Source of the DNA: Escherichia phage vB_EcoM_EP57
Direction: 5' to 3' (one strand)
DNA: 64,000 nucleotides
Sequence record: OR544956
The notes below the pieces were generated by a model that was not told where the DNA came from, ran no database searches, and worked only from the letters and a program-made list of their open reading frames with translations. Both the position numbers and the translations under genes were made by a program. Shown here one piece after another: positions 31,660-42,563 of this stretch (its first letter is position 1; every line of letters begins with the position of its first letter).

Positions 31660-32235
31660 TTGGCAGGTGAACCAAAAATAATGTGGGGTGAAGGAACACC
31701 CTGGAAAACACAAGCTGAATTTTATACTTATCTTAGGGGATGTTTTAGAAAAGCATGGATGAGACACCCTAATAAAATTAAGGTTATCAATGCAAGGCGT
31801 TTTAAAGTTGATCGTGTAGATAAAGACGGCAATGTAATGATAGACAAGAAAACTGGAAAACCAAAACAAGTTTGGAATTGTGAGTGCGAAATATGTGGAC
31901 ACAGAGGAGGAATGAAAGACTTCCAAGTGGATCATATTCACGCAGCAAAACAACTTCAATGTTTTGAGGATATTCCCCTTTTTGTTTTCCGTTTAATCTA
32001 TGTGAAAGAAGAAGATTTGCGCATGGTTTGTAAATTGTGCAACTCTATTCTTGCTTATGCAGATAAACAAGGTATATCTTTTGAAGAAGCGAAAGCTGAA
32101 AAAGAAGCAATAGCTTTGTGTAGAGCTAAGAAAGATAAAGCTTGGTTGAAGAAGCGTAAAATAGAACCTGAAAGCACAGTAGCGAAACGCCGCAAACAAA
32201 TAGTCAAAATCCTATTGCAGGAAATTGAAAGTTAG
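31660..32235 (+). CDS. HNH endonuclease (free-standing homing endonuclease-like); likely start ATG at 31681
   Basis: CECEICGH...QVDHIH...CKLCN HNH zinc-finger motif. Confidence 0.5.
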   Translation: MAGEPKIMWGEGTPWKTQAEFYTYLRGCFRKAWMRHPNKIKVINARRFKVDRVDKDGNVMIDKKTGKPKQVWNCECEICGHRGGMKDFQVDHIHAAKQLQCFEDIPLFVFRLIYVKEEDLRMVCKLCNSILAYADKQGISFEEAKAEKEAIALCRAKKDKAWLKKRKIEPESTVAKRRKQIVKILLQEIES

Positions 32236-32271
32236 TATAAGATAACTATACTAAAAGAGAGAGGAGGTTTT

Positions 32272-32880
32272 ATGCAGATAGTATGTGATTGGGATTTAGT
32301 TGTGGCTCCATTAGATGTTGCTTGGTTAGAATGGTTGAATAAGATTAGTGGACTTGGTGTTAAGATAGACACATTCACAAAAAATGCAGACTATGATCTT
32401 ACCAACTACTTTCCTGGTTTCAGGGAGGAGTTCAATATAGATCCTTACGGATTTCTGGATAATCCTCATCTCTATGATACAATGGGTTTTGTTGCAGGTA
32501 TGCCAGATTTCTTAAAGTATGTTTCAAGGAAAGGTAGCAATCTTTTGATCGCAAGTGTGACAAAAGGTGGTCACTTAAGTTCTAAACATAAGCATGTTTT
32601 AAGAACATTAGATACGATTGATTTTAGCAAAGGATCTGGCAACGGCTTTTTTGCTACGAAAGAAAAATACTTATTACCTTGTGATATAGCAATAGATGAC
32701 AGGGCTGATAACCTACTATATTTTCCAGATGAAGTGGTTAAAATATATTTTAATACGCCTTATAAAGATAACCATCTAGAAGAACTAAAGAAAAAACCAA
32801 ATGTTGTGATCACAGGTTTAGAAGATCAGTGGCTAACATGTTTGGATGTTTTTAACACTTTGAACAATTTTAAAAACTAA
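32272..32880 (+). CDS. HAD-superfamily phosphatase (5'-deoxyribonucleotidase candidate)
   Basis: N-terminal DWDLV (DxDx[TV]) and IDDRADN motif; sits among nucleotide-metabolism genes. Confidence 0.4.
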   Translation: MQIVCDWDLVVAPLDVAWLEWLNKISGLGVKIDTFTKNADYDLTNYFPGFREEFNIDPYGFLDNPHLYDTMGFVAGMPDFLKYVSRKGSNLLIASVTKGGHLSSKHKHVLRTLDTIDFSKGSGNGFFATKEKYLLPCDIAIDDRADNLLYFPDEVVKIYFNTPYKDNHLEELKKKPNVVITGLEDQWLTCLDVFNTLNNFKN

Positions 32881-32889
32881 GGAGAAAAA

Positions 32890-33888
32890 ATGACAAAACA
32901 GATTTCGGCTAGTATTATTGCGCATTCCATTACTGAAGACGGAAAAGAGATTGTAACTTTTGAACTAGAATATCCACGTATTATTCATTCAGAATTGATG
33001 ACTCACCGCCTGTTCAGTCGTAATGCTGCTTCTAGCCGTGCTATACCTGTTAAAACACTGATTGAAATGGTGCGAAATCAACCTGCTCGTCCTTATCGTT
33101 TTGGGGCTAACCAACCTGGTATGCAGGATAAAGGTGTTGATCATGACGCTCTTATTGATGCAGGTTATACTGCTCAAGAGTGGTGGGATCTTGCCGCGCT
33201 TAGTGCAGCACGTTTTGCAGAAGAATTCTCTTTGGCAGGGTACCACAAACAAGTTGCAAACCGTCTTCTGGAACCTTTCCAACGAATTAAAACAGTTCTG
33301 ACAGCAACAGAATATGAAAATTTCTGGTGGCTACGTGATGACAAAGAAGCCGATCCTACTATCGAAGCTTTGGCTAAAGAGATGCACAAAGAGTATGAAG
33401 GATCTACACCAGAAGTGCTGAAACCAGGGCAATGGCACACACCTTATGTAGACCATTTCTATGATAATATTGGTACAGAAGGTGACGATCATTTTGTTTT
33501 TGGTGGATACTACGTTCAAGATGAATCTGGAGAAGTTGTTGTGCTTACTTTGGAAGAAGCCAAAGCTATTTCAGCTTCGTGTTGTGCACAGGTTAGCTAT
33601 CGTCGTTTAAATGCAACTAAAGATAAAGCTTTAGATATCTATGGTCGCTTGCTGACTGGGCGCAAGGTTCATGCTTCTCCGTTTGAACATCAAGCTACTC
33701 CAATTCAAGAAACATGCGAACAATATGGAGAGAACTGTTTTGAAGATTTGTTTATCAATGCTCCTTGGGATTTTAACTCTTGGGAACCAGGTATTACCCA
33801 TGTAGATCGTAATGGTAAGTTTTGGTCTGGCAATTTCAAAGGCTGGATTCAACATCGTCAACTTTTAACAAATCATACTAAATGGTGA
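32890..33888 (+). CDS. thyX: ThyX-like flavin-dependent thymidylate synthase family protein with divergent signature and C-terminal extension
   Basis: MTHRLFSRNAASSRA aligns to the ThyX RHRxxSxxxxSSRY signature with first Arg replaced by Thr and Tyr by Ala; 332 aa. Confidence 0.45.
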   Translation: MTKQISASIIAHSITEDGKEIVTFELEYPRIIHSELMTHRLFSRNAASSRAIPVKTLIEMVRNQPARPYRFGANQPGMQDKGVDHDALIDAGYTAQEWWDLAALSAARFAEEFSLAGYHKQVANRLLEPFQRIKTVLTATEYENFWWLRDDKEADPTIEALAKEMHKEYEGSTPEVLKPGQWHTPYVDHFYDNIGTEGDDHFVFGGYYVQDESGEVVVLTLEEAKAISASCCAQVSYRRLNATKDKALDIYGRLLTGRKVHASPFEHQATPIQETCEQYGENCFEDLFINAPWDFNSWEPGITHVDRNGKFWSGNFKGWIQHRQLLTNHTKW

Positions 33889-33904
33889 TCTGTTTAAATA
33901 GTTA

Positions 33905-33932
33905 TTGACTTTAGTATTAGTTTTAGTATAAT
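33905..33932 (+). promoter_or_regulatory. consensus sigma70 promoter
   Basis: TTGACT - 16 nt - TATAAT. Confidence 0.55.
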
Positions 33933-33986
33933 ATAGCACAATACTGGGAGGAGGTGAGTCCTCCCATTCAAAATGAAGGAGAAAAT

Positions 33987-34397
33987 ATGTCATTAGTAAA
34001 TACTACAACTTGGGCTACCGTAAGCATGTCTACTGTAATGTCTACCCCTATCTGGAAACTAGAATCAAATAAACACAATGGCAATATCCCACACGAGAAA
34101 CAAAATGCTGTTATTAGAGCGTCGCTTGTAATGCTGGGTATGGCTGAAGATTCACACTATTCTGTTGAGCGTAATGTGAATATCAGAAGCAATAACGATA
34201 AGCGAGTAGTGTTTGCAAATACAACGCTTTTCACTTTCCCTGTTTCACCTAATTGTGGTTTTAAACGAATCTATCAAGAAAATGATATTTTTCATTTTGG
34301 TGATGAAGAATTTACAGGTTGGGGTGCGTCACATATTAAGATGGATGATTTCGGTAACTCTTATGATCCTGCGAAAGCAGATGATACTAATCAATGA
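33987..34397 (+). CDS. hypothetical protein
   Basis: ATG at 33987 with RBS. Confidence 0.4.
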   Translation: MSLVNTTTWATVSMSTVMSTPIWKLESNKHNGNIPHEKQNAVIRASLVMLGMAEDSHYSVERNVNIRSNNDKRVVFANTTLFTFPVSPNCGFKRIYQENDIFHFGDEEFTGWGASHIKMDDFGNSYDPAKADDTNQ

Positions 34398-34648
34398 GAG
34401 GGACAATGACTGATAATAAATATGAAGGCTGTGAAATCGAAGTCTATTTTGATGAAACTGTTGGTTGTAATGTAACTGTAATTCTAGACACTTCAAAACG
34501 TTTATCTCCTAAAAGACAAGAAGCAGACCGTCGAGCAAAAGCAAAAGGGTTTGATGACATAACTCATTTTGAAGGTTTTCTATATGCTAATGGACTTTTT
34601 AATGAAATGAAGTTTGGTTATGATGTAGATGTTTTGAATATGCATTAA
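34394..34648 (+). CDS. hypothetical protein
   Basis: 84-aa ORF, start overlaps upstream stop. Confidence 0.35.
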   Translation: MRGTMTDNKYEGCEIEVYFDETVGCNVTVILDTSKRLSPKRQEADRRAKAKGFDDITHFEGFLYANGLFNEMKFGYDVDVLNMH

Positions 34649-34664
34649 TAATAGGGAGGAGAAG

Positions 34665-36905
34665 TTGATTCGTTTTGTAACTAAATCTAATGGTAAGACA
34701 GAGGAGTTTAATCCAGAAAAACTTCGCAAGTGGTCTGAATTTGCAGCAGGTAAACTAAACTGGTCTGAAATTGAATTAGAAGCTGTGAAGCGGTGTTATG
34801 ACGGTGTGTCTACACGTGATCTGCATAAAGCAATGATTGCAGCGTGTATTGACAAGAAAACACAAGCTTACAGTGATATGGCAGGAAGACTTCTTCTGGG
34901 TATGATTTACAAACAGGCTCATGGGGGATACCACAGTATCCCTTCACTGAATACCTTTTATCATGATATGGTAGAACGTGGACATTGGGCTAAAATGGAT
35001 TATACTGATGAAGAGATCAAAGAAATAGGTAAGATTGTAAAGCATAATAAAAATCTAACTTATGGTTATTCTGTTTTACGTCAGATGGTAGATAAATATC
35101 TTATTCGAGATGCAGTAAACGATGTGGTGCATGAGTCTCCACAATTTCTTTTCATTGGTATCGCAATGAAGGTTATGGAGATCCAACCAAAAGAACGCCG
35201 TATAGAAGATATTAAAAAACTTTATACTTATGTTAGCGATCTTAAGATTAATCTGCCATCGCCGTATCTGACAACTCTACGAACTCCAATCAAAGGAAGT
35301 GCGTCTTGTTGTTTATTCCGTGCAGACGATACGGCAGAATCTTTAGCCATTGCTAATTACTTAGCTCATGAGTATACGTTGAATAACGCAGGTATTGGTG
35401 TTAATCTTCAAACTCGTGCCACAGGTCAAGGTGTTAAGAATAATCGTATTATTCATGGTGGTCTTCTTCCGTATCTGAAATGGATGGAAGATAGTGTTGG
35501 AGCTTCGAAGCAAGCAAGCCGTGGAGGTAGTGCTACAGTTACCTTCACCATACTTGAACCAGACTTCGACGATCTGATTCGACTGAAGAATCCAACAACA
35601 CCTATAGATAAACGAGTAGACAAACTGGATTATTCTATTGTTGTTAACCGTTCGTTCTTGCGTCGAGCAGCAAAAAACGAAGATTGGATGTTAGTTAGTT
35701 GTGATGATGCTCCTGAACTTTATGAAGCTTTGTATAAAAGTGAAGAAGAGTTTGATGCAGTTTATGACAAAGTAAGCCGTCGTCGCATTAAGAAAAAATT
35801 TGTTAAGGCTCGTGATCTTCTGACAGAGATTATTGTTCAACGTGCAGAAACAGGACGTATTTACATGTTCTTTGCTGACAACGTTAACAACCATACACCT
35901 TTCCTGGATACGGTGTATCAATCAAACCTGTGTCAAGAGATCTTCTTACCAACTAAAGCTTTCCACAGTATGCCGGATCTCTTTACTGGTGAGAATACAG
36001 AAGATCAAGAATTGGCTTTATGCTTCTTATCTTCTATTGTTGCTGGTCGTGTCTTACCTGAAGAATATGAGGATGTTGCATATTACACTGTATTGACAAT
36101 TGACAACGTTATTGAAACAATGGATTATCCATTTAAACATAACGAAATAACTGCTAAAGCACGTAGATCTATTGGTGTAGGTATTACAAACTTAGCGCAT
36201 TATTTGGCAAGTAATTTTGTAAATTATTCAGATGCTTATGCTAAAAAATTAATGCATGAACTTGCAGAACGTCATTACTTTTGGTTGGCAAAAGCCTCTC
36301 TGCGTCTGGCTAAGGAAAAAGGTAATGCAGAATGGATCGATAAGACCAAATGGCCTCAAGGTTGGCTACCAATTGACACTTATGCTAAAACAGTAGATAG
36401 TATCGGTAATTTTGATCTTAAAATGGACTGGGAAGGCTTACGTGCTGAAATCATTGAACAAGGTGGTATCCGTAACAGTGTCTTGGCTGCTATTGCACCT
36501 AATGAGTCCAGCAGTTTGGTAAGCAATACTACTAACTCTCTGTACCCTGTTCGTGATACTATTATGTATAAACAAAGTCAGAAAGGTAGCGTATTATTTA
36601 TTGTTCCAGATTACGAAAAACTGAAAATGTTCTACCAATCCGCCTGGGATACTCCGGCTAAAGACCTTGCAGAAATGTATGGTATCTTTACCAAGTTTAC
36701 GGACCAAGGAATTTCTTGTGATTCTTGGTTAGATTATTCTAAATTGGTAGGGGGACGTTTATCAGTTAAAGAAGAGATGAAATTTATTTTGAACTTTGCT
36801 AGACTGGGTGGTAAGTCATTGTATTACCTTAATAGTAGAACAAAATCAGCAGATTCTTTAGCACAAGAAGATTCTGATGGTGGTTGTGAAGCTTGCAAGA
36901 TGTGA
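34665..36905 (+). CDS. nrdA: ribonucleoside-diphosphate reductase large subunit
   Basis: 746 aa; N-terminal ATP-cone (VTKSNGKTEEFNPEKLRKW); TTG start after GGGAGGAG; followed by nrdB. Confidence 0.8.
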   Translation: MIRFVTKSNGKTEEFNPEKLRKWSEFAAGKLNWSEIELEAVKRCYDGVSTRDLHKAMIAACIDKKTQAYSDMAGRLLLGMIYKQAHGGYHSIPSLNTFYHDMVERGHWAKMDYTDEEIKEIGKIVKHNKNLTYGYSVLRQMVDKYLIRDAVNDVVHESPQFLFIGIAMKVMEIQPKERRIEDIKKLYTYVSDLKINLPSPYLTTLRTPIKGSASCCLFRADDTAESLAIANYLAHEYTLNNAGIGVNLQTRATGQGVKNNRIIHGGLLPYLKWMEDSVGASKQASRGGSATVTFTILEPDFDDLIRLKNPTTPIDKRVDKLDYSIVVNRSFLRRAAKNEDWMLVSCDDAPELYEALYKSEEEFDAVYDKVSRRRIKKKFVKARDLLTEIIVQRAETGRIYMFFADNVNNHTPFLDTVYQSNLCQEIFLPTKAFHSMPDLFTGENTEDQELALCFLSSIVAGRVLPEEYEDVAYYTVLTIDNVIETMDYPFKHNEITAKARRSIGVGITNLAHYLASNFVNYSDAYAKKLMHELAERHYFWLAKASLRLAKEKGNAEWIDKTKWPQGWLPIDTYAKTVDSIGNFDLKMDWEGLRAEIIEQGGIRNSVLAAIAPNESSSLVSNTTNSLYPVRDTIMYKQSQKGSVLFIVPDYEKLKMFYQSAWDTPAKDLAEMYGIFTKFTDQGISCDSWLDYSKLVGGRLSVKEEMKFILNFARLGGKSLYYLNSRTKSADSLAQEDSDGGCEACKM

Positions 36906-36913
36906 TGAAACTA

Positions 36914-36935
36914 GGGGCTTCGGCCCCTTTTTATT
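36914..36935 (+). terminator. stem-loop GGGGCTTCGGCCCC plus T-run
   Basis: GGGGC-TTCG-GCCCC then TTTTTATT. Confidence 0.5.
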
Positions 36936-36949
36936 GAGGAGAATTTTAA

Positions 36950-38035
36950 ATGGCAGCAATTAATTTACACAATGAAGTTTACAAAACAGGAAAATATCCA
37001 GTATTTTTGGGGGAGCAATTAGGGATCTTTGATTCTGTTAACGTAACTTATCCAGAAATGCACAAACTCTACAAACTTCAAAAAGCACAAGATTGGGATG
37101 AAAACGAAGTTAATCTGGATCAGACACGTAAAGATTTCGTAGCTTGTTCTAAAAACAACTATGATGTTATGATTAAAAACTTATCGTTCCAATGGGAAAA
37201 TGATTCTCTTGCAAAATCAATCATCACTTTGTTCTCTCCATTCTTGAGTAACAATGAAGCCTGTGCTATGATGATGAAGCAGAGTGAAATGGAAGTTCTC
37301 CATGCGTTAACGTATTCTGAAATAATCCGTCAATGTACTCCAGATCCAATTGAAGTCATCAATCAGATTATGATTAATGATAAAATTTTCAATCGTATGG
37401 GTATCATTGCTGATATCATGGGTCAGTTGGAAGAAGCTGGTCATAAGTATGCTCTAGGATTGATTGAAGCTAACGATGAACTTCGCTTGCTGATTCTTAA
37501 AGGGATGGTAGCCCTGATTGGATTAGAAGGTATTCAGTTTATATCTTCCTTCTCTGCTACTTTTGCTATGGCAGAACAACAATTGTTTGTTGGGGCTTGT
37601 AAACTGATCCAGAAAATTATGCTAGATGAAATCTTGCATGTTAAGATGGACTATGCTGTAATTGATGCATTGATGCATGACCCAATTTGGCGTAAAATTT
37701 ACGAAGATAATATTGAAGAGTTGACTTTGATCCTCGACACTGTTGTTGAACAAGAGGAACAGTGGTGTGACTACCTGTTTAGTGAAGGTCGTTTTATTGT
37801 AGGTCTTAACGCCGAATTGTCTAAACAGTGGGTTTATTTCAATGCTGCTCCTATTTATCGTCGATTGAAAATGAAAGCCAAGTTTAAAGCACCTAAACAT
37901 AGTCCTTTAGCTTGGATGGAAAAATGGTTGAATCCTGATTTGATTCAGTCAGCAGCCCAAGAGATTCAGTTAACTAATTACAAATTGAATTCAGCTAACA
38001 AAGATCTCTCTGATGATGAGGAGCTTGACTTCTAA
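36950..38035 (+). CDS. nrdB: ribonucleoside-diphosphate reductase small subunit
   Basis: 361-aa ORF directly after nrdA, RBS and ATG; size typical of class I R2. Confidence 0.7.
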   Translation: MAAINLHNEVYKTGKYPVFLGEQLGIFDSVNVTYPEMHKLYKLQKAQDWDENEVNLDQTRKDFVACSKNNYDVMIKNLSFQWENDSLAKSIITLFSPFLSNNEACAMMMKQSEMEVLHALTYSEIIRQCTPDPIEVINQIMINDKIFNRMGIIADIMGQLEEAGHKYALGLIEANDELRLLILKGMVALIGLEGIQFISSFSATFAMAEQQLFVGACKLIQKIMLDEILHVKMDYAVIDALMHDPIWRKIYEDNIEELTLILDTVVEQEEQWCDYLFSEGRFIVGLNAELSKQWVYFNAAPIYRRLKMKAKFKAPKHSPLAWMEKWLNPDLIQSAAQEIQLTNYKLNSANKDLSDDEELDF

Positions 38036-38244
38036 TGATTTTGAGATGTGTTGGTATAATCGACACATTCAAAGACGTTTTTGACAAAGGGGCTTCTTAT
38101 GAAGCCTCCGAAATGAAGAATGGTTTTTGTGATGTATTCGGTAAACGCCCGAAGAAAAACGGCGATCCTTGGCTAGGAGTTATGTCTTGTGGTCATATTA
38201 TTGTAAATGGTGTTGCCAAGTTTGAAATAATTAAGGAGGAATAA
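38035..38244 (+). CDS. hypothetical small protein
   Basis: 69 aa, ATGA overlap with nrdB stop. Confidence 0.35.
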   Translation: MILRCVGIIDTFKDVFDKGASYEASEMKNGFCDVFGKRPKKNGDPWLGVMSCGHIIVNGVAKFEIIKEE

Positions 38245-38537
38245 TGGCTGAAAAACTTATTTTTTGTCCTGTGTGCGGTGGGACTGGACAGATGGAAGTG
38301 GAAATTATGGTAACATTTCCTTGCCTGAATTGTCATGGTGAAGGACGAGTAGTAATCTTTGAAAAAGAAGAGGTGGAAGATGGAGAAGAGTATGTCCGTA
38401 TTCCACGAGAATTAACAGATCACATTGCAGAAGCAATAGCTTTCGAAGCTAGATGTTGTGGAGGCATTGCTTACGATATTTATGAAGCAATTATTAAAGC
38501 TGCTCAAGAAGAGGAGGAGATGAAAAATGGGTATTGA
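38244..38537 (+). CDS. hypothetical zinc-ribbon protein
   Basis: CPVCGGTG...CLNCHGEG; acidic C-terminus. Confidence 0.4.
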   Translation: MAEKLIFCPVCGGTGQMEVEIMVTFPCLNCHGEGRVVIFEKEEVEDGEEYVRIPRELTDHIAEAIAFEARCCGGIAYDIYEAIIKAAQEEEEMKNGY

Positions 38538-38853
38538 TATCGAATGGCGTATGTTACAGGGTGCACCTTTTAATAAGTGGGAAGAGGCTGTAGGAGAAGA
38601 TCCTAGAATTGAAGAAGAATTTGACGGAGATTTTAACTGGTTCTTACAAGAAGGTCTGGACTTAAGCCGCATCTCTCCTTTCTACGATGCGGATGAGTCT
38701 TATTGCATATATGGCCTTGATTTAGAAGGCGGAGAGGGAAGCATAGCTGTAGATCTTGAGCAATTGAATGAGAATGCAAAAGAAGCCTATGCAAAGCTAC
38801 TTGAAAAATATAACATTAAAACGGAAACTATTATTTCTCAACATGTTTGGTAA
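38527..38853 (+). CDS. hypothetical acidic protein
   Basis: 108-aa ORF, coupled to neighbours. Confidence 0.35.
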   Translation: MGIDIEWRMLQGAPFNKWEEAVGEDPRIEEEFDGDFNWFLQEGLDLSRISPFYDADESYCIYGLDLEGGEGSIAVDLEQLNENAKEAYAKLLEKYNIKTETIISQHVW

Positions 38854-38862
38854 GGAGAACTG

Positions 38863-39855
38863 ATGCGCTATCTGGTAACAGGTGGTCTTGGTTTTATTGG
38901 GAGTGCCGTGGTGCGCTCTCTTTGTCAAGATCCTAATAACGAAGTTTTTGTCGTTGATAAGATGGGCTATGCAGCAGATATTGAGAATGTAGGCGATATC
39001 ACTCACGTTAAACTAAGCATAACAGATTTGGCAAACGAAACCCAGGTCAAAAGTTTAGTAGTAGAGTGCAATCCTGACTTCATCATTCACTTAGCGGCAG
39101 AAAGTCATGTGGATAATTCTATCAAGAATCCACGAGTTTTCATCGACTCCAATATTATCGGTACATACAATTTATTGGAAGCTGCAAGGCTCCTCCCAAA
39201 AAATAAACTGAAGATGTTCGTACACGTCTCCACAGACGAAGTGTACGGCGATATGGCAGACTCTGGCGTTCCCTTTACCGAAAAGACAGCTTATGCCCCT
39301 TCAAGCCCGTACAGTGCGTCTAAGGCAGCATCTGACCATCTTGTGAAAGCTTGGCACCGCACCTACGATTTGCCTGTTGTGATAACCAACTGCTCCAATA
39401 ACTTTGGGCCTTATCAACATCCAGAAAAGCTGATCCCAAAAATCATCACAAGTATCTTGACGAATAAAGAGATTCCGGTGTATGGTAAAGGCGACCAGGT
39501 GCGAGACTGGCTTTTTGTTGAGGATCATGCGCGAGCTATTCTTCAAGTGGCAACAGGTGGAGAACCAGGTCAAACGTATAATGTTGGAACACGTAATCCC
39601 AAAACCAATATGGAGATCATCTATATGGTTTGTGACTATATGGATACTGTACATCCAGAAGCAGTAACCTACCCTTCTTCCAACTTGATAACTTTTGTTG
39701 AAGATCGTAAAGGACATGACTTGCGTTATGAAATCAATCCTTCTAAGATAGAGTCTGAACTGGGCTGGAGTGCAAACTCTACATTTGAACAAGATCTCTA
39801 CTCAACGATTGAATGGTACTTAAACAACCCTCAATGGTGGAGTGAGAAAATTTAA
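38863..39855 (+). CDS. rmlB: dTDP-glucose 4,6-dehydratase
   Basis: [17 protein letters not shown] Rossmann motif; catalytic [15 protein letters not shown] (YxxxK); 330 aa. Confidence 0.9.
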
Positions 39856-39863
39856 GGAGGGTT

Positions 39864-40742
39864 ATGAAAGGTATTATTTTGGCGGGAGGAAGTGGAACCC
39901 GCCTTCATCCGGTAACACGCAGTGTGAGCAAGCAATTGCTCCCTGTGTATGACAAACCCATGATCTACTACCCTTTATCGGTATTGATGTTGGCTGACAT
40001 TAAGGATATTTTAATCATCACCACACCAGGTGATCAGGAAGACTTTGAGTATCTTCTCGGAGATGGGTCTATGTTTGGGATAAAACTCACTTACGCAATC
40101 CAATCCGAGCCACGAGGTCTTGCGGAAGCTTTCATCATAGGTAAAGATTTTATCGGAGAAGACTCTGTTGCTCTTATTTTAGGTGACAACCTATTCTTCG
40201 GACAAAGCTTTGGTAAACTACTGATTAACGCTAGTGAGATGGTAGATGTTTGGGGTGGAGCTTGTATCTTCGGGTATTTGGTGAAAGATCCTGAACGATT
40301 CGGTGTGGTTGAATTTGGGAGTAATCGTCAAGCTATTTCTATTGAAGAGAAACCTGAAAATCCTAAATCAGATTATGCTGTCACAGGTTTGTATTTCTAT
40401 GATAACTCTGTTATTCAACGTGCATTAGAAGTAACCCCTTCCGCGCGTGGAGAACTGGAGATCACTGATATCAATCGCAGCTACCTAGAAGACAGCAAGT
40501 TACAAGTGGAAGTTCTCGGACGAGGATTTACTTGGCTTGACACAGGAACACACGCCAGTCTGATGGAAGCTGGTCAATTCGTGCAGACTATTGAGAACCG
40601 TCAAGGATTGAAGATTGCGTGCCTGGAAGAAATTGCTTTCAAAAAAGGGTGGATTTCTTTAGAGACTTTGGTGTATCATGGAAACTCACTGAAGAAAACA
40701 GAGTACGGGCAATACCTACTCAAATTAGCGGAGAGAAAATGA
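39864..40742 (+). CDS. rmlA: glucose-1-phosphate thymidylyltransferase
   Basis: [39 protein letters not shown] signature; 292 aa. Confidence 0.9.
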
Positions 40743-41305
40743 AAGTAGAAAAAACAAAAATTGAAGGTGCGGTAATTATCAAACCAGACGTTTATAAAGA
40801 TGATCGTGGTTTCTTTCTAGAAACATATAATGAACAAAAATACGAAGATATTATTGGTAGACAAACTTTCGTTCAAGATAACATGTCTAAATCAAACTTC
40901 GGTGTTTTGCGAGGAATGCACTTTCAAACAAATAACCCGCAAGGTAAGCTTGTTCGTTGTGTAAGTGGGGAAGTATTGGATTTCGCTGTAGATTTACGTA
41001 AAGATAGTCCAACTTACGGTGCTTGGGACGGTGTTGTTCTTCGTGCACGACACCATACGCAGTTTTGGCTTCCACCTGGTTTGGCACATGGTTTTATAGT
41101 TTTGAGTATGGATGCGATCTTTGAATACAAATGCACAACTCCATACGACCCTTCTAGTGAACAAAGTTTACGTTGGGATGATCCTGATATAGGGATCGAT
41201 TGGGGCTTCGATATGATTTTTGACGAAGGTTTTAAACCTATTCTATCAACAAAAGATGCAATGGCTAAATCTTTTCAACAGTTACGTAGCGAGGGTGTAT
41301 GCTAA
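40739..41305 (+). CDS. rmlC: dTDP-4-dehydrorhamnose 3,5-epimerase
   Basis: ATG at 40739 overlaps rmlA stop (ATGA); cupin with RGMHFQ motif; 188 aa (track start 40619 is an upstream alternative start inside rmlA). Confidence 0.8.
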
Positions 41306-42141
41306 CATATCTGGTATTGGGCGGTAATGGACAACTGGGACAAGCTTTACGTAAAGTGGCTCCTTCAAATGTATCTTTAATTTATCCTAAAGAACGTGTA
41401 GATATTACAAATTTTGAAGCTGTGCGAAACGCTATTATTGAAGATTATGTAGATGGTGTTATTAATTGCGCCGCTTATACGGCTGTAGATAAAGCAGAAC
41501 ATGATTTTGCTACTGCTTTGGCTGTTAATGCGTATGGACCTGCAAATATTGCGGCAGTGTGCAGCAAACTTAAAATTGATTTTGTGCATATTTCTACAGA
41601 CTATATTTTTAATTATTCTCATCCTATTTTTGAAGATACTACACCTAACCCAATAAACAATTATGGGTATACGAAAGAACTTGGTGAAAAAATGGTGCGA
41701 GGAGTTAACCCAAATGCATATATTATTCGAACAGCCTCGGTATATAGCGAATTTGGAAATAACTTTCTAAAAACCATGTTGTCTCGCTATAATGATGGAC
41801 AACGTGATTTTATTATTGTTGCTGATCAGTTCTCTTGTCCAACATATGCTCCAGATTTAGCAGAAGCTATTTTTGAAGTATTAAAAACAGGTTGGTCAAG
41901 GTCTGTTAAGACTTACCATTTTGCAGGAAGCCATCTTATTTCTTGGGCGGAGTTTGCGGAAAAAATCTTGACACAGATGCCAGAACCTGTTAAGATATCG
42001 GCGGTATCAGCTTCAACCTATAATGCTCCAGCAGCACGTCCGGTGAAGTCACAACTAGTAACCAGTCACTATCTTACAAAATCAGATTTAAATAAAGGTA
42101 TTGAACAGTCTTTAGCAGTATTACTTAATAAGGAGAGGTAA
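41299..42141 (+). CDS. rmlD: dTDP-4-dehydrorhamnose reductase
   Basis: N-terminal LVLGGNGQLG; YGYTK (YxxxK); 280 aa; overlaps rmlC stop. Confidence 0.7.
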   Translation: MLTYLVLGGNGQLGQALRKVAPSNVSLIYPKERVDITNFEAVRNAIIEDYVDGVINCAAYTAVDKAEHDFATALAVNAYGPANIAAVCSKLKIDFVHISTDYIFNYSHPIFEDTTPNPINNYGYTKELGEKMVRGVNPNAYIIRTASVYSEFGNNFLKTMLSRYNDGQRDFIIVADQFSCPTYAPDLAEAIFEVLKTGWSRSVKTYHFAGSHLISWAEFAEKILTQMPEPVKISAVSASTYNAPAARPVKSQLVTSHYLTKSDLNKGIEQSLAVLLNKER

Positions 42142-42401
42142 TGGAATTTGTAATTTTTGGTAAACCTAACTGTCAATTTTGCGAAATGTCAAAACAACTA
42201 TTAACCATGCGCAATAAACAGTTTGAATATTTAAGTCTTGATCAAGACTATGATTTAGAATCAATGACTAAAACAGTTGTTGATCTTACCGGAGTTCCTC
42301 CACGCACATTTCCACAAATTCTGTCCGAAGTGAACGGGGAGGTAACATACGTAGGCGGTTTTACCGAACTGCGTGATCTCATGGCTCAAATTGCGGAGTA
42401 A
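42141..42401 (+). CDS. glutaredoxin / NrdH-like redoxin
   Basis: 86 aa with N-terminal CQFC (CxxC); TAATG coupling to rmlD. Confidence 0.6.
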   Translation: MEFVIFGKPNCQFCEMSKQLLTMRNKQFEYLSLDQDYDLESMTKTVVDLTGVPPRTFPQILSEVNGEVTYVGGFTELRDLMAQIAE

Positions 42402-42563
42402 CAATTATGAAAAGTAAACAGAAACGTAAGATCTTTTCTCGTGCTTTGGCAAATGAGCTGAAGTCCAACATAAAGAAAACGAAACCAAAACGTGAAACTT
42501 CTCCAGAACATCTGTTGTTTAACGAGTTGGATCACGGAGTAGGAGACGACGAATAGGAAGTAA

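Follow-up and report, generated by a model that had tools for sequence, protein, structure and literature searches.

We analysed a thyX-like gene in the window, a stretch of 64,000 nucleotides (sequence record OR544956) whose source is a Phapecoctavirus-type E. coli myophage. The ORF is real, and its GGAG Shine-Dalgarno sequence comes directly after the stop of the preceding ORF (Table 1). The product is 100% identical to phAPEC8 gp113 (JX561091), a 'putative thymidylate synthase', and the 3 kb around the gene are 99.1-99.6% identical to the listed relatives, including phages nieznany, tuntematon and phAPEC8 (99.6% for nieznany, over positions 32000-35000 of the window). The PHROG 85 'thymidylate synthase' profile covers residues 3-332 (E 1.2e-107). 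The gene and its 'thymidylate synthase' label are already known.

The gene is part of a rightward, early/middle block devoted to nucleotide metabolism. Its upstream neighbour, an NT5C-like gene that stops 10 nt short of the thyX-like start, is annotated as 'deoxyribonucleotidase' in LR597654. Downstream lie the genes for ribonucleotide reductase (RNR) and for RmlB, RmlA, RmlC and RmlD, which together make up a complete dTDP-L-rhamnose pathway encoded in the same direction as the thyX-like gene. A close relative has four glycosyltransferase genes at another location of its genome (L003, 38806-41950). In addition to the HNH endonuclease ORF listed in Table 1, HNH genes occur at further places in the nucleotide-metabolism block; one of them separates nrdA from nrdB in nieznany, a position taken by a different small ORF in phAPEC8. 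This suggests the presence of mobile homing endonucleases within the block. A 2-kb composition profile of the whole window shows that the sign of the GC skew flips at ~24 kb and ~54 kb, matching the switches of gene orientation, and the thyX-like gene lies within a positive-skew, plus-strand block.

ThyA, FolA (DHFR) and Dut (dUTPase) are absent from the annotation of the complete nieznany genome, and tblastn with E. coli ThyA, FolA and Dut as queries gave no significant match in either the window or that genome. Elsewhere, orthologues of the thyX-like gene adjoin RNR in Pseudomonas K8 and ICP1, dCTP deaminase in PhAPEC7 (an N4 relative), dCMP deaminase in DSS3phi2 and dNMP kinase in Caulobacter C2; in roseophage genera, thyX and dcd co-occur (PMC11934525).

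Table 1. Features of the thyX-like gene and its surroundings, with positions in the window.
Feature	Position	Strand	Details	Basis
HNH endonuclease ORF	31660-32235	+	191 aa	Annotation in RefSeq records of close relatives
NT5C-like 5'(3')-deoxyribonucleotidase (HAD family), borderline	32272..32880	+		Pfam NT5C, 23.6 bits against a cutoff of 24.8, E 5.5e-5
Shine-Dalgarno GGAG	32881..32884	+	5 nt before ATG	Read directly from the sequence
thyX-like CDS	32890..33888	+	332 aa + stop, ATG start; permuted ThyX-family protein	
N-terminal β-hairpin joined directly to ThyX core	32890..33417	+	Residues 1-176	Pfam, hhalign, AF2
Altered ThyX motif THRLFSRNAASSRA	33001..33042	+	Residues 38-51	HMMER, hhalign, family conservation
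β-rich linker with GxWHxPY motif	33418..33546	+	Residues 177-219	Alignment, AF2, conservation
Displaced α1-α2-His module (AISASCCAQVSYR…HASPFEHQ)	33547..33693	+	Residues 220-268	HMMER pieces, re-permutation, conservation
Family-specific tail	33694..33885	+	Residues 269-332	Family alignments
Conserved WSGNFKGWIQHRQL of the tail	33823-33864	+	Residues 312-325	
NrdA, class Ia ribonucleotide reductase large subunit	34665..36905	+		ORF list, phAPEC8 annotation
NrdA, NrdB, RmlB, RmlA, RmlC, RmlD, glutaredoxin	~34665-42500	+		By correspondence with L001, 21776-29840

Fold and segment order

An AF2 monomer model of the product (pLDDT 93.9, pTM 0.91) has the ThyX fold, with strands at residues 6-14 and 20-29 followed by a helix at residues 30-37. 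Pfam Thy1 (PF02511) matched the product with 33.3 bits (gathering score 24.8; E 5e-8 (5.4e-8)), the match being limited to residues 22-174, that is, to profile positions 59-190 of 191. The NCBIfam thyX equivalog TIGR02170 gave 31.1 bits against a cutoff of 87.9, the level at which the same function is transferred automatically. A search of the PDB with the single sequence of the product returned zero matches, and a family profile was required, while a BFVD structure search matched family members and canonical phage ThyX only. We detected neither sequence nor fold similarity of the product to ThyA-type thymidylate synthases or hydroxymethylases.

Canonical ThyX (or FDTS; PF02511, TIGR02170), as represented by T. 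maritima TM0449, M. tuberculosis Rv2754c and the enzymes of H. pylori and of PBCV-1 (A674R), has a module composed of helices α1-α2 and His53 between the β-hairpin and the RHR motif; it is a homotetramer in which each active site draws on three subunits. In the product, in contrast, the helices between hairpin and core are missing from residues 1-176, and the module comes after the core. Linking the two is a β-rich segment whose GxWHxPY motif is invariant (H183, P185) and for which no counterpart was detected in canonical ThyX. Behind the module lies a tail with a variable insert (residues ~270-310) and a conserved segment that includes the invariant R323. The product is 332 aa long, ~110 aa longer than ThyX; the solved ThyX chains measure 216-258 aa, tags counted. 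The earlier note had described a long C-terminal extension; the extra length is real, but it holds a displaced ThyX segment and is not an add-on.

As can be seen from the HMMER comparison of the family profile with T. maritima (Tm) ThyX in the PDB, the two match in three pieces of scrambled order. Profile positions 220-262 correspond to native Tm residues 20-60 (helices α1-α2 and GHETPFEH), positions 28-56 to residues 62-90 (a strand and the RHR motif), and positions 141-181 to residues 160-200 (core); Tm numbers are the PDB chain numbers minus a 12-residue tag. We constructed a re-permuted sequence with residues 220-267 placed between residues 17 and 20. Its Pfam Thy1 score was 50.5 bits, compared with 33.3 for the native order and 28.7 for a control with the insert reversed, and the profile was covered from 14 to 190 as opposed to 59-190 for both the native sequence and the control. 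The TIGR02170 score rose from 31.1 to 49.2 bits (still below the cutoff), with the reversed-insert control at 24.6. Similarly, the family HMM scored 25.5 bits against Tm ThyX in the native order and 44.8 bits when re-permuted, now as one continuous piece over Tm 20-90; 100 column-shuffled inserts gave 20.9±1.3 bits (maximum 28.7), and other 48-residue blocks of the product put at the same spot gave 20-29 bits. This increase over the controls shows, at the level of sequence, that the product is a non-collinear (permuted) ThyX.

Alignment of the family with Tm ThyX by hhalign returned the collinear core only (residues 21-176, probability 54%) and cannot reveal a permutation, which is seen from the multi-piece HMMER output and the re-permuted constructs. 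The segments of the Tm ThyX sequence used offline agree with the PDB sequence in the HMMER output, and the three-piece result against the PDB is independent of that offline sequence. The rearrangement may plausibly have originated from a partial tandem duplication, followed by loss of α1-α2 from the first copy and of most of the second copy. In three dimensions, the displaced module would be expected to occupy the position of α1-α2 and H53 in ThyX, and R323 and H183 may lie near the active site.

The altered motif and the active site

In both HMMER and hhalign, LMTHRLFSRNAASSRA (residues 36-51) pairs with T. maritima FRHRIASYNELSGRY, aligning THRLFSRNAASSRA to RHRIASYNELSGRY. Where the complete ThyX motif is RHRxxSxxxxSxRY, the product reads T-H-R-L-F-S-R-N-A-A-S-S-R-A, so that, of the fixed positions, all but the first and the last are retained. 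The claim of the earlier note that the first Arg of RHR is replaced by Thr and the Tyr after SSR by Ala is borne out by both alignments, in which T38 corresponds to R78 and A51 to Y91. Both substitutions are family-wide, T38 being present in 58 and A51 in all of 61 sequences, and they persist in relatives with 31-41% identity.

These two positions are prominent in the enzymology of ThyX. Within RHR, which holds FAD by its phosphates and ribityl, the first Arg additionally contacts the isoalloxazine and dUMP, and the Tyr acts as a lid over dUMP C5 and flavin N5 (PMC6514825). R78 faces N1/C2=O of FADH- and stabilises the anionic flavin hydroquinone; it has been called conserved in ThyX, and Y91 and S88 strictly conserved, and mutation of Y91 slows flavin oxidation during methylation ~1000-fold (PMC11940539). 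A conserved Tyr standing in for Y91 was sought and rejected, as Phe replaces Y237 in 12 of 61 sequences and Y186 likewise in 12.

We mapped the remaining residues of the canonical active centre onto an alignment of 61 diverse members, 38-52% identical to the query. In the core, H39 (H79), R50 (R90), R125 (R147), N144 (N169) and R149 (R174) are present in 61/61, S48 (S88) in 60/61 and R40 (R80) in 48/61. In the displaced module, S236 (S30) and H261 (H53) are found in 61/61, S263 (T55) as Ser in 59/61 and E266 (E58) in 58/61; H267 corresponds to H59. Apart from R78 and Y91, the residues lost are R74 (A or S in the family), Q75 (E), E86 (A or S), N163 (T or S) and R165 (T, 60/61). Thus, of the dUMP-binding set (R74, R78, S88, R90, R147, R174), the counterparts of S88, R90, R147 and R174 are invariant or nearly so, and R74 and R78 are replaced, R30, K120, R238 and R323 being candidate substitutes. 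Of the FAD/folate set (S30, H53, T55, E58, H79, R80, N169, R165), S30, H53, T55 (as Ser), E58, H79 and N169 have counterparts in 58-61 of 61 sequences, R80 in 48, and R165 is replaced. In ThyX, H53 stacks on the flavin or folate, and a hydrogen bond links S30 to C4=O of the flavin (PMC11940539). Altogether 16 columns are invariant across the 61 sequences, nearly all of the substrate and cofactor ligands among them.

Invariant or near-invariant residues without a canonical counterpart are R30, G77-M78, K120, H183, P185, R238 and R323. Relative to canonical ThyX, then, the family has lost three arginines (R74, R78, R165) and a Tyr (Y91); at other positions it has acquired three arginines, one lysine and one histidine. 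We read this as function that probably relocated after the rearrangement.

By its fold and most of its ligands the product is a member of the ThyX superfamily. Three defining features of the canonical enzyme, the full motif, collinear order and an equivalog-level score, are lacking.

Relatives, inteins and split genes

The family is large, with 4982 representatives of 50%-identity clusters at E ≤ 1e-3, and is found in 1034 phage records, among them those of rV5-like, ICP1, Pakpunavirus, N4-like and Caulobacter phages. The 'thymidylate synthases' N4 gp30, rV5 gp106, ICP1 gp193 and that of Pakpunavirus (PHROG 85) belong to the product's own family (31-74% identity) and share with it the motifs THR…SSRA, GMQ, GEWHxP, HASPxEH and GNxxGWxQxR, which are kept down to 31-41% identity. 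Nothing essential differs between them and the product, the insert at 270-310 varying in length.

Some family members carry inteins, located precisely in the two motifs of highest conservation. In the metagenomic relatives P0128 and P0135, an intein of the HNH type comes directly after THR (Intein_splicing 59.7 bits, HNH 32.4 bits), and a LAGLIDADG-containing insert follows the His equivalent to H261 (H-ASPFEH) in the metagenomic relative P0157. In the window these sites would fall at R40/L41 (~nt 33007-33012) and H261/A262 (~nt 33670-33675). The positions of the inteins provide independent support that both motifs matter.

Split versions of the gene were also observed. In Flavobacterium phage FPSV-D7 (MW421580, an UNVERIFIED record) the family gene is present as two ORFs on the minus strand (7369-6656 and 5735-5451), ~0.9 kb apart. 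The break comes right after GEWHxP (residue ~192), and the family HMM matches again from residue ~227 onwards (E 1.8e-18), so the break coincides with the junction of core and displaced module. A group I intron in the gap was considered and rejected, there being no Rfam match except a spurious miRNA. The rV5-like Escherichia phage vB_EcoM-ECP26 has two deposited proteins, A0A4Y5TVX3 (245 aa) and A0A4Y5TVY4 (97 aa), both of them BFVD entries that match the AF2 model; its two-protein 'thymidylate synthase' reflects either an error (frameshift or sequencing) or a further split of the gene.

Another member of the permuted family (41% identity) is gp50 of Stenotrophomonas phage AXL3 (MT536174, 168-1016, minus strand). 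It coexists with a ThyA-type enzyme, dCMP deaminase and thymidylate kinase, indicating that redundancy between the two enzyme types does not hold in every case. Of 37 restriction enzymes, 35 fail to cut AXL3 DNA; TasI and Tru1I alone cut it, at AATT and TTAA (PMC7504290), which points to a modification of G or C rather than T. In AXL3, DNA modification could be the task of the ThyA-like enzyme and thymidylate synthesis that of gp50, or the two roles could be swapped.

Function of the product

In addition to the ThyX fold, the non-collinear homology, the residue map and the genomic context, which are established here, we propose that the product is probably a permuted but functional flavin-dependent dTMP synthase, a ThyX-type enzyme of a large phage-borne subfamily with rearranged architecture. 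This reading is favoured indirectly by the invariance of the dUMP-contacting arginines known from solved ThyX structures (PMC6514825), by the product being the only thymidylate synthase candidate of its genome, and by the linkage of orthologues to RNR, dCTP/dCMP deaminase and dNMP kinase. Against it stand the absence of R78 and Y91, for which no strictly conserved Tyr makes up, the score below the equivalog cutoff, and phage AXL3, where a family member occurs next to a ThyA-type enzyme in a phage with restriction-resistant DNA. FAD and dUMP would be bound through the retained H39, R40, S48, R50, R125, N144, R149, S236, H261, S263 and E266, and the methylene would be taken from CH2-THF via flavin N5 to give dTMP. 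The roles of the lost R74, R78, R165 and Y91, which would comprise charge stabilisation of FADH-, phosphate binding and a lid/acid over C5-N5, were presumably passed to the new invariant residues R30, K120, H183, R238, R323 and G77-M78. The dTMP may serve replication of the phage genome where the supply from host ThyA is limiting; the genome is ~38% G+C (62% A+T), and dTDP-rhamnose synthesis also spends dTTP. ThyA, described as non-homologous to ThyX (PMC7824862), and the phage dUMP/dCMP hydroxymethylase paralogs perform the same step (C1 transfer to pyrimidine C5) and occupy the same position in phage nucleotide operons.

The earlier note left the choice between a genuine ThyX and a paralog with another pyrimidine chemistry, and the retention of the fold and most ligands supports this in part. 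The loss of R78 and Y91 at the reactive centre could indeed reflect a flavin- and folate-dependent enzyme with a different C5 chemistry on dUMP, for example its conversion to 5-hmdUMP by hydroxymethylation. With neither the Tyr lid nor an Arg to stabilise FADH-, the methylene intermediate would take up water in place of being reduced. The NT5C-like deoxynucleotidase immediately upstream recalls the dTMP-removing enzymes that occur in hmU and U-DNA phages, and the phage carries dTDP-sugar genes and glycosyltransferases. The idea also has a precedent, as a second Thy1-like protein of SP-15 (a different protein) was hypothesised to be an hmdUMP synthase (PMC5977210). However, the genome has no other thymidylate synthase despite its A+T-rich DNA, hmU-processing genes such as that for 5-hmdU DNA kinase are not annotated, and the family occurs in more than 1000 routinely sequenced records of many lineages with no thymine replacement reported in the literature searched. 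Moreover, Vequintavirinae and relatives have been described as 'exceptionally susceptible' to restriction-modification systems (PMC8594841), and this sensitivity of the phage's relatives makes a bulky pyrimidine modification or thymine replacement unlikely. We therefore consider hydroxymethylation or a similar reaction by the product quite improbable. Very unlikely, too, is methylation of another nucleotide, be it dCMP or UMP, the latter as by PolB (PDB 4P5A), the ThyX-like UMP/dUMP C5-methylase of polyoxin biosynthesis that is among the closest known systems. R50 and R149, whose counterparts R90 and R174 contact dUMP in solved ThyX, are invariant, the neighbourhood always consists of DNA-precursor genes, and cytosine as the substrate should call for an acceptor residue in their place; in AXL3, a cytosine could equally well be modified by the ThyA-like enzyme. 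For the family as a whole, it seems unlikely that its members are flavin-dependent uracil-C5 transferases of altered chemistry, releasing 5-hydroxymethyl-dUMP or acting on another nucleotide and serving DNA modification in some carriers, such as AXL3; such chemistry would be enabled by removal of the Tyr lid and Arg and by an active site rebuilt with R323 and H183.

An ordinary collinear ThyX domain followed by an unrelated C-terminal extension, the anatomy proposed in the earlier note, would agree with the collinear Pfam and hhalign matches, which cover residues 21-176 only. However, Thy1 profile positions 1-58 have no N-terminal counterpart and match residues 220-267, with 17-19 bits more against the controls, and residues 220-268 are the sole place with counterparts of the FAD/folate-contacting S30, H53, T55 and E58. 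The re-permutation tests contradict this anatomy, and we regard it as extremely unlikely. It is just as hard to believe that the product is a catalytically dead ThyX relic, retained as a nucleotide- or flavin-binding regulator: two residues held critical are indeed lost, but the 16 invariant columns include nearly all of the ligands, inteins occupy the motifs, and the family is very widely retained.

Our searches of the literature on ThyX and circular permutation, the ThyX motif, N4 gp30, ICP1, rV5 and Pakpunavirus returned annotation-level statements only. The searchable literature yielded neither biochemistry nor genetics on any member of the family; its papers carry over the 'thyX/thymidylate synthase' label, and the rearranged architecture with its systematic loss of R78 and Y91 is undescribed there.

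ThyX enzymology and inhibitor design rest on a few collinear enzymes from bacteria and chloroviruses, for which R78 and Y91 count as indispensable. Thousands of phage proteins, however, keep the fold and most ligands, yet move an active-site module and dispense with both residues. If the phage dTMP synthase proposed here is not one, much phage annotation would need revision. If it is active, the family would constitute a natural experiment on the true requirements of the ThyX mechanism, would show how flavin hydroquinone and methylene transfer can be handled without the lid Tyr, and would give an experimental footing to thyX as a common auxiliary metabolic gene label in N4-like, rV5-like, ICP1-like and Pakpunavirus phages.
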